Of a DNA stretch of 64,000 nt, positions 17,219 to 18,267 are shown one piece after another (the stretch's first letter is position 1; each line of letters starts with the position of its first letter). Under the pieces are notes generated by a model that did no database searches, was not told the origin of the DNA, and worked only from the letters and a program-made list of their open reading frames with translations. Both the position numbers and the translations under genes were made by a program. The DNA is taken from the IMG/VR virus record IMGVR_UViG_3300008262_003210. One strand, given 5' to 3'. The DNA comes from a virus. Its lineage: Duplodnaviria; Caudoviricetes.

Positions 17219-17455
17219 TTAAATCAACGGCATTTTAGTTTCTTTACTCATATCAATGTTTTCTTTTATCACAGTATACATTGCTGAGCGATCATCGTAG
17301 CTGTACTGATGTAACAGCTGATCTACAGTTACACCTCCCCGCATGTACCAACTGAGTCTCATCAACTCAGTTTTAAATTCTTTAATTTCGTTTTCTAGCC
17401 TAACTAGATATTCTTCAATACCGCCCGCAGACAATCCAATTAGGCGCCTACGAAA
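17219..17455 (-). CDS. C-terminal extension of the tail chaperone (gp51/GT-like), probably expressed by -1 frameshift
   Basis: The frame is open upstream of the track's TTG start (FRRRLIGLSAGGIEE...) back through the slippery site; no ATG or SD at its 5' end; contains LSWYMRGG. Confidence 0.65.
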   Translation of the reverse strand, partial: FRRRLIGLSAGGIEEYLVRLENEIKEFKTELMRLSWYMRGGVTVDQLLHQYSYDDRSAMYTVIKENIDMSKETKMPLI

Positions 17456-18267
17456 AAATTTGATTGATCCAATTCTATTTTAATAGTGTCTTGATGGCCG
17501 CAACTGTCGCAAACAATAGATTTTTCAGGCGGTGTCCAACTGTCTTTCATTTTGTCTGCGTGACTATTAAGAGATTCTGTAACATGCACATCTGTGTTTG
17601 TTATCCATTCTTTAATGAATTGCGGATCTGTAACAATTTCAGATCCTATGCTTACACTTTCTATACCTGCACTTGCAATGTCTAATTTTAATAAAGTTAA
17701 ATCTTCTAATATATCTTTGTTTGTTTTAGCACGTTCGGCATCATCTAATATACTTTGTATTTGAATTACTTTTCTTTGTAGTTCAAAATTTCTAAGAGCA
17801 AAACTAGTTGATTGCTTGTAGGTCATGGGCCGTAATGTAACTGTTAGGTCGTGTACTTTAAAACTATTGTTGTAACGACATTGTGAATAAAATTCGATAA
17901 TATCTGACAAATTGATTGTATATGTGTTTTCTGCGCCGCAAGAAGAACACGCTCTTGTTGCTTCTAAAGTATTACCATAAGTGGCAATTCTAATAGCAGA
18001 CAGTAAAATATCCATATCTAACATGGAAATATCCCACGGATCTACAATATTAGGACAACAACTGGCAATAACTCTTGCAGTACTTTCTCCAGATAGCAGA
18101 GCATCGGCAGTTTTCAGCAGAATCTCGTCCATGCCAGTCATACCATAAATTGGTAATTTAGTAACATCACCTTCTATACTGCCTTTATGGTTATAAATTC
18201 CTTGACTAGGCAAACTGATAAAAATTTTAGGCTGTCTAAAATATTTTTGTAATGGGTTGGCAGACAT
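17440..18267 (-). CDS. gp26: Baseplate hub assembly / tail chaperone, T4 gp26-like
   Basis: NPLQKYFRQPKIFISLPSQG, PIYGMTGMDEILLK, DMDILLSAIRIATYG, two CxxC pairs (CSSC, CDSC). Confidence 0.75.
   Translation of the reverse strand: MSANPLQKYFRQPKIFISLPSQGIYNHKGSIEGDVTKLPIYGMTGMDEILLKTADALLSGESTARVIASCCPNIVDPWDISMLDMDILLSAIRIATYGNTLEATRACSSCGAENTYTINLSDIIEFYSQCRYNNSFKVHDLTVTLRPMTYKQSTSFALRNFELQRKVIQIQSILDDAERAKTNKDILEDLTLLKLDIASAGIESVSIGSEIVTDPQFIKEWITNTDVHVTESLNSHADKMKDSWTPPEKSIVCDSCGHQDTIKIELDQSNFFVGA

Follow-up and report, generated by a model that had tools for sequence, protein, structure and literature searches.

The tail assembly chaperone genes gpG/gpGT of phage lambda, E/E+E' of P2 and their counterparts in Mu carry a conserved -1 frameshift, the conservation of which Xu, Hendrix and Duda are said to have described in 2004. 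Here we analyse a gene of the PF12322 family on the minus strand of a 64,000-nucleotide stretch of DNA from an uncultured giant phage of freshwater, a virus of the Caudoviricetes (Duplodnaviria; IMG/VR record IMGVR_UViG_3300008262_003210), referred to below, at its full length, as the window. Judging from its sequence and that of its relatives, the region 17219-18267 is very probably a single recoded gene, which would give rise to a short and a long baseplate-hub assembly form through a -1 frameshift. An earlier note on this DNA had proposed a programmed -1 frameshift that joins a gp26-like gene to the downstream open reading frame (ORF), and the conservation of the slip site, the overlap of the two frames and the lack of start codons in the second of them support that proposal.

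The closest described proteins are gp26 (208 amino acids) and gp51 (249 amino acids) of T4, both classed as chaperones of hub assembly by Leiman et al. (2010, PMC3004832, Table 2); gp51 is absent from the finished particle (PMC3004832). Their roles in central-hub assembly are still unsettled. In our searches both proteins belonged to PF12322 (E-values of 9e-64 for gp26 and, over residues 1-201, 4e-52 for gp51), and the likeness to the window lies in how they end. T4 gp26 stops three residues past a Phe-Phe motif (..GLKEFFELL*), as does the short form of the window gene, and gp51 runs on in frame past the motif (..VDVF-KLLVNPDEIF...), as the long form would. What differs is how the two products are encoded: the Phe-Phe codons of gp26 are TTC TTT, which is not slippery, whereas the window has T_TTT_TTC, and T4 possesses two paralogous genes without a slip site where the window phage has one gene with recoding. 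The hub protein is also longer in the window, at 275 amino acids against about 200 in T4.

Predicted slip site and extension in the window gene and its relatives

The zero-frame gene (17440-18267, minus strand) encodes a protein of 275 amino acids ending in ..LDQSNFFVGA*, and its 3' end reads GAT CAA TCA AAT TTT TTC GTA GGC GCC TAA on the minus strand, with the TAA at 17442-17440. A slippery heptamer T_TTT_TTC, in X_XXY_YYZ phase, lies over Phe271-Phe272 (17452-17458, minus strand), and a second heptamer, A_AAT_TTT, overlaps it at 17455-17461 on the same strand and would give the same protein if used. In the -1 frame the sequence reads ..KFFRRRLIGLSAGGIEEYL.., and this frame, already open ahead of the T run, first meets a stop at 17221-17219. 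A slip on T_TTT_TTC would yield ..QSNFF-RRRLIGLSAGG.., a product of 349 amino acids made up of 272 zero-frame and 77 -1 frame residues and encoded by the whole recoded gene (17219-18267, minus strand); the extension itself (17219-17452, minus strand; 77 codons and the stop) would be read only after the slip. It is predicted to form a three-helix domain with a conserved SWYMRGG motif, and its AlphaFold model, with a predicted local distance difference test score (pLDDT) of 92.7, places the helices at residues 9-36, 43-48 and 52-72. The only early start codon in the extension is a TTG at residue 7, and the 12 nucleotides upstream of it hold no Shine-Dalgarno-like motif. In this the extension is unlike the hub gene, which has a Shine-Dalgarno sequence, GGAG, 7 nucleotides ahead of its ATG (18274-18277, minus strand) and, further upstream, a TATAAATA box. 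The earlier note had read this sequence exactly to the base, with regard to both heptamers, the stop and the open -1 frame; it had described the downstream ORF as having only a TTG and no Shine-Dalgarno sequence, and the sizes it gave, about 349 amino acids for the fusion and 275 for the unshifted product, are those we recomputed.

The family assignment of the 275-residue protein is clear from its match to Pfam PF12322, T4_baseplate (E 5.3e-13; 49.6 bits against a cutoff of 24.5; residues 61-271), with no match to any other Pfam family. It also matches phrog_150, 'baseplate hub' (E 5.9e-16), and the proteins that it matches in BFVD, with E-values down to 7e-22, are named 'baseplate hub assembly protein/chaperone'. 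The AlphaFold model of the hub protein has a pLDDT of 85.8; Foldseek found nothing below E 0.1 for this model in the PDB and AlphaFold Swiss-Prot, and for the extension it found in BFVD only small uncharacterised phage proteins (TM scores of 0.72-0.79, E of at least 0.07). Sequence searches of the PDB with profiles of the hub protein and the extension gave matches at chance level only. There is one copy of PF12322 within the 64-kb window.

The window stretch occurs mostly in lake and freshwater metagenome runs. With tblastn the hub protein matched 94-96 phage records at 23-32% identity, and the full-length matches examined all came from jumbo myophages: Atu_ph07, Phosso, the 121Q/PBECO4 group, RaK2/K64-1, GAP32, CBB, BF, fHe-Yen9-04, PA5oct/MIJ3, XacN1, RAS14, RsoM2USA and SCTP-2. 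IMG/VR held 314 relatives, the best 80 of which (41-71% identical) were used for comparison. Together with the window and 12 isolated jumbo phages (Atu_ph07, 121Q, MIJ3, XacN1, SCTP-2, RsoM2USA, RAS14, fHe-Yen9-04, CBB, RaK2, BF and GAP32) they form a set of 93 sequences.

A zero-frame T_TTT_TTY stands at the conserved Phe-Phe motif in all 93 of these sequences, 9-39 nucleotides ahead of a stop codon whose position varies. It is also found in frame in the cyanophages S-WAM1 and S-SSM6a, in Aeromonas phage Aeh1, and in 57 of 57 distinct cyanophage-type IMG/VR loci, where NNT TTT TTC G lies exactly 9 nucleotides before the stop and is followed by an extension of about 63 codons. The codon ahead of the heptamer always ends in T, though it may encode N, S, D, H, G, A, R or V. 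Of 92 sequences, 66 have A_AAT_TTT, and the remainder have AGT, GAT, CAT, GGT, GCT, CGT or GTT in place of AAT ahead of the Phe codons. Of the two heptamers to which the earlier note had drawn attention, both of them real, only T_TTT_TTY is thus universal and A_AAT_TTT is optional; the heptamer and the -1 overlap were present in every homologue that we examined.

These synonymous choices run against the codon usage of the genes. When sequences were grouped into clusters at less than 60% identity, the second Phe was encoded by TTC in 28 of 31 clusters, although TTC accounts for only 24% of Phe codons. Taking the genes' own usage (0.76 for TTT among Phe codons, 0.64 for T at two-fold, Y-ending third positions), NNT TTT TTY would be expected at a frequency of about 0.49 per lineage given the amino acids and was seen in 31 of 31 clusters, with a naive P of about 2e-10 that treats the 31 lineages as independent and therefore somewhat overstates the significance. 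The run comprises six T in about 89 of 92 sequences; it is extended to seven in XacN1 and RAS14 and to nine in Ralstonia phage RsoM2USA (GTT TTT TTT TCC), the last of these (L087:2257-2300) being long enough that polymerase slippage might contribute.

The two frames behave as one polypeptide across the heptamer. In an alignment of 33 diverse sequences the Phe-Phe motif and the -1 ORF align across the junction without gaps (FFR.xLI....EI...L..L......K.EL..ISWYMRGGV...), and in none of them does a stop interrupt the -1 frame on the way back to the heptamer, the spacing being constant, while the zero-frame tails past the heptamer comprise 1-11 unconserved residues. In 22 of the 31 diverged clusters there is no ATG, GTG or TTG within the first 10 residues of the extension, a Shine-Dalgarno-like motif precedes an early start in one of the 31, and the extension of MIJ3 is devoid of start codons throughout its 73 codons. 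Most homologues, therefore, have neither an early start codon nor a Shine-Dalgarno sequence for the second ORF. The first start in most IMG/VR loci is the Met of WYMRGG, at residue 37, and gene callers begin the small ORF at residue 37, 19 or 3-8. Since the predicted helices, and with them the folded domain, begin at residue 9, initiation at Met 37 would cut the domain. In RaK2, MIJ3 and RsoM2USA the extension carries no annotated feature.

Natural fusions of the two parts were found when a profile of the extension was searched against 1.84 billion cluster representatives. Among the top 150 of the 320 matches, 19 representatives are single ORFs of 319-351 amino acids with the extension at the C-terminus, and the five that were scanned all belong to PF12322 (E 2e-7 to 2e-12). 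At their junction, xF-R-x-x-L-I, there is one Phe and no T run. The same fusion accordingly exists in frame in nature, because these single ORFs align without gaps to the product predicted for the window. They bear on the viability of the fused polypeptide and not on its production in the window phage.

Downstream of the heptamer the RNA could fold into a stem-loop that is a candidate stimulator of the slip (17398-17445, minus strand). Its outer stem of 12 base pairs (17445-17434 with 17409-17398) begins 6 nucleotides past the heptamer, with a folding energy of -20.4 kcal/mol and a z score of -3.1. Among 58 distinct relatives the cells of this helix were paired in 83.5% of cases, against 75.9% after shuffling (none of 500 shuffles reached the observed value) and 12-53% when the helix was slid, although the helix was named by eye before it was counted, so that the figure leans towards the sequences from which it was read. 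Seven of the 11 helix pairs show changes on both sides; for example, where TAA has become TGA in the 5' arm, the 3' arm has C in place of T. In one sub-clade the 5' arm remains in place and is paired with a different, more distal 3' arm (GCGCUUGA...UCAAGCGC). Hairpins 4-7 nucleotides past the heptamer recur in relatives (z -3.8, -6.0 and, in Atu_ph07, -8.1), and hairpins at the same spacing but of unrelated sequence are found in the cyanophages S-WAM1 and S-SSM6a (z -5.4 and -5.2); that of Aeh1 is moderate (z -2.5, with a spacing of 2 nucleotides). The window helix overlaps with coding sequence, and the sequences in which it was counted are those from which it was read; we therefore take it as supporting evidence and not as proof.

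Counterparts in T4, the cyanophages and lambda

Residues 147-246 of T4 gp51 match phrog_634, 'baseplate hub assembly catalyst', and so do the -1 ORFs of S-WAM1, S-SSM6a and Aeh1 (E 2e-30, 8e-26 and 1e-13, respectively). Across the junction, the frameshift products predicted for Aeh1 and the cyanophages can be aligned with gp51 from both T4 and GEC-3S. The cyanophage 'gp51' ORFs of phrog_634, of about 63 amino acids, lie in the -1 frame behind T_TTT_TTC as in the window; they are annotated as independent genes, and by sequence they belong to a different sub-family from the window extension. HHalign gave no usable match of the extension to T4 gp28 or to the whole of T4 gp51 taken as a single sequence, the probabilities being 0.1% and 1.8%, respectively. 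A different route to several forms is seen in T4 gene 26, which is annotated with an internal in-frame product, 26' (L085:1803-2090).

Searches of whole records showed how the number of PF12322 genes varies with the presence of a slip site. Two PF12322 genes, neither of them with a heptamer, are present in T4 and GEC-3S, in keeping with the earlier note, which had T4 encoding gp26 and gp51 separately. Aeh1, S-WAM1, S-SSM6a, Atu_ph07, RaK2 and MIJ3 have one PF12322 gene with the heptamer and the extension. In Cygsa01, which has TAATG and lacks the heptamer, and in Bacillus phage HSE3, where the module is in the +1 frame with an ATG of its own, one PF12322 gene is accompanied by the module as a separate small ORF. 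The in-frame long genes (contigs L180-L183) stand directly behind a tandem short PF12322 gene that ends in ..GTSFFND* or ..GSNFLPDNQ*. In the genomes compared, a lone PF12322 gene is thus accompanied by a slip site, or by a small ORF of its own for the module in two exceptions, and those with two genes lack a working slip site. The tandem short paralogue of L180 (1680-1710) has TCT TTT TTC 9 nucleotides before its stop, and the -1 frame closes there after two codons (FFQ*); this heptamer is either a relic or plain coding of the Phe-Phe motif.

A maximum-likelihood tree of the PF12322 domain, which has several long branches and was rooted at its midpoint only, falls into two clades (support 100/99). 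One holds the cyanophages and Aeh1 together with the T-even gp26 and gp51 groups, which are sisters (96/87); the other holds the jumbo and freshwater phages, that is, the clade of the window, the in-frame long genes as its sister (81/92) and the tandem short genes. The two duplications are thereby separated by the split with the strongest support, which is most simply explained by an ancestral frameshift that gave way to gene pairs on two occasions, apparently independently.

Gene order is shared with T4 in part. Genes 26 and 51 are adjacent and divergent in T4, gene 26 being divergent from 51-27-28-29, and the divergence of the hub gene from the tape-measure candidate is also found in 121Q, MIJ3, CBB, RaK2, BF and GAP32; this arrangement, which the earlier note had called unusual, is therefore not so. 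We dropped the notion that the tape-measure gene always follows the PF12322 gene, because the next gene is gp5-like in Cygsa01 and of an unassigned family in the cyanophages and Aeh1.

The description of the recoding as 'G/GT-style' in the same note holds for the logic of the pair and fails for the family and for the position of the gene. As in lambda, a gene for a morphogenesis chaperone would give a short and a C-terminally extended form through a -1 slip close to its 3' end; both forms would presumably be required in a fixed proportion, and neither would be a major component of the virion. Unlike lambda G/GT, the window protein belongs to PF12322 and has no detectable similarity in sequence or fold to any tail-assembly-chaperone family in Pfam or the PDB. 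The lambda-type order, between the tube and tape-measure genes, is also absent from the window, where the gene is divergent from the 681-residue tape-measure candidate; the only relative with the classical order is Bacillus phage HSE3 (sheath, tube, PF12322 gene, small ORF, tape measure). The process served would differ as well, T4 genetics pointing to assembly of the central hub where lambda has a tail assembly chaperone. It is conceivable, if rather doubtful, that the PF12322 pair is nevertheless the G/GT counterpart of the T4 superfamily, that T4, far from breaking the rule of frameshifting in chaperone genes, exchanged recoding for duplication (genes 26 and 51), and that the extension docks a complex of chaperone and tape measure or hub onto the growing tail.

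Frameshifting and its alternatives

The arrangement in the window might instead represent two separate genes, the T run doing no more than encode Phe-Phe and the downstream ORF being translated alone, either from the TTG or by coupling or re-initiation at the hub stop. The extension is indeed annotated as a small ORF of its own in 121Q, XacN1, CBB, GAP32, BF and the cyanophages, an ATG overlaps or adjoins the stop in 121Q, Atu_ph07 and a few IMG/VR loci, and Cygsa01 and HSE3 truly encode the module separately; moreover, the retention of Phe-Phe in T4, where TTC TTT encodes it, points to constraint on the motif at the level of the protein as well. However, the early start codon that such a gene would use is missing from the majority of clusters, and MIJ3 has no start at all. 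The first start comes only after helix 1 and the conserved residues FFR.xLI....EI, the -1 frame is in every case open back to the heptamer with its spacing kept, the synonymous choices are fixed against codon usage, and the natural in-frame fusions share the junction. A coupled small gene fits a minority of genomes and not the window or most of its relatives, and we consider it improbable as an account of this locus.

Slippage by RNA polymerase is a shade less probable again. Were the polymerase to add one U in the T run, a minority of messenger RNAs would encode the long form in frame, and the site is a homopolymer at which one extra U gives the identical protein; the runs of RsoM2USA, XacN1 and RAS14 are longer than six. 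Six T, the length in nearly all of the sequences, is nevertheless short for polymerase slippage as known cases are understood. The phase is always NNT TTT TTC and never NNV TTT TTT, which is of equal length and would be favoured by codon usage, and this favours a ribosomal slip because only NNT TTT TTC allows both tRNAs, including that in the P site, to re-pair. Hairpins at 4-7 nucleotides, a spacing typical of ribosomal stimulators, also recur with different sequences. One contig from the single RNA library, which contained a tenth of the sampled words, spans the six T without a gap, which is weak evidence, as contigs hide rare variants and the template may have been DNA. An error of sequencing or assembly in the homopolymer, splitting an ordinary gene for 349 amino acids, is suggested by the proneness of such runs to error and by the in-frame versions of 319-351 amino acids that exist in nature. 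It can be set aside as excluded for practical purposes, because the same configuration is kept in 93 of 93 relatives from many studies, finished isolate genomes among them, and independent contigs from other samples span the run unchanged; the natural in-frame versions, with their single Phe and no T run, are not seven-T variants of the window gene.

Several observations weigh against recoding by the ribosome. U_UUU_UUC is, to our knowledge, not one of the heptamers classically associated with efficient slipping in bacteria, and the support for the slip is comparative throughout. In 121Q (TAATG) and Atu_ph07 (ATGA), where the ATG overlaps the stop, coupled re-initiation could add to the slip or replace it. 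Hairpins are weak in CBB, MIJ3 and RaK2 (z -0.9, -1.3 and +0.2), and RNAalifold gave no consensus structure over all 58 distinct downstream segments. The window extension has no match to phrog_634 at E of 1 or below, and HHalign of the extension against the alignment of cyanophage, Aeh1 and gp51 sequences gave a probability of 7.8% (E 0.004) over an S/P-x-E/D-R motif. The extension can thus be called the positional equivalent of the C-terminal module of gp51, by virtue of its position, its length and the shared junction and not of profile homology.

With these reservations, a -1 frameshift by the ribosome would account for the locus as follows. Most ribosomes would stop at the TAA at 17442-17440 and release the short form, equivalent to T4 gp26. 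Some would slip back by one base on U_UUU_UUC, where both Phe-tRNAs could re-pair with UUU, probably aided by the hairpin 6 nucleotides downstream, and would then read 77 more codons in the -1 frame to give the long form, which would have an extra three-helix C-terminal domain and correspond in position to the T4 'hub assembly catalyst', gp51. We infer that the slip is made by ribosomes rather than by RNA polymerase, and likewise that the two forms are made in a particular ratio; as T4 gp51 is not in the finished particle, the long form may well be made in the smaller amount. By analogy with T4, both forms would act as non-structural chaperones in the assembly of the central hub.

In the literature searched, which lay mostly outside the subscription journals, we found no published report of this recoding. 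If a single ancestral gene, recoded to give a short and a long product, underlies gp26 and gp51, a testable model follows in which the two share a domain and act in a set ratio, and which would explain why genes 26 and 51 adjoin in T4. One functional requirement would then be served in three ways, by frameshifting, by gene duplication (twice, apparently independently) and by a split ORF. The annotation of many phages would be corrected accordingly, where the extension is unannotated or is called a separate 'hypothetical protein' or 'gp51'.

Promoter, neighbouring genes and minor observations

The TATAAATA box 5' of the hub gene (18299-18306, minus strand), read directly from the sequence, matches the consensus of T4-type late promoters and, from what is known of these, is a putative late promoter of the hub gene. 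On the plus strand, divergent from the hub gene, lies the tape-measure candidate, a protein of 681 amino acids (18331-20376) with no Pfam or PHROG match at E of 0.01 or below; its counterparts are annotated as 'virion structural protein' in 121Q, CBB and BF and as 'similar to tail tape measure' in RaK2. The next gene after it (20386-22119) encodes a T4-like portal (PF07230, E 2e-110). On the other side, an ORF of 318 amino acids (16262-17218, plus strand), without a Pfam or PHROG match, converges on the extension, its end abutting the extension stop.

Among the relatives, the hub gene of the IMG/VR contig L018 (1501-2560) is interrupted by an in-frame TAA (..ELADI*TEIY..), the later frame, the heptamer and the extension being intact; the internal stop is either an error in the contig or a nonsense variant. 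Two records evidently mislabel the PF12322 hub gene: Yersinia phage fHe-Yen9-04 has it as 'Lead, cadmium, zinc and mercury transporting ATPase', and Escherichia phage WPEC5 as 'portal protein'.

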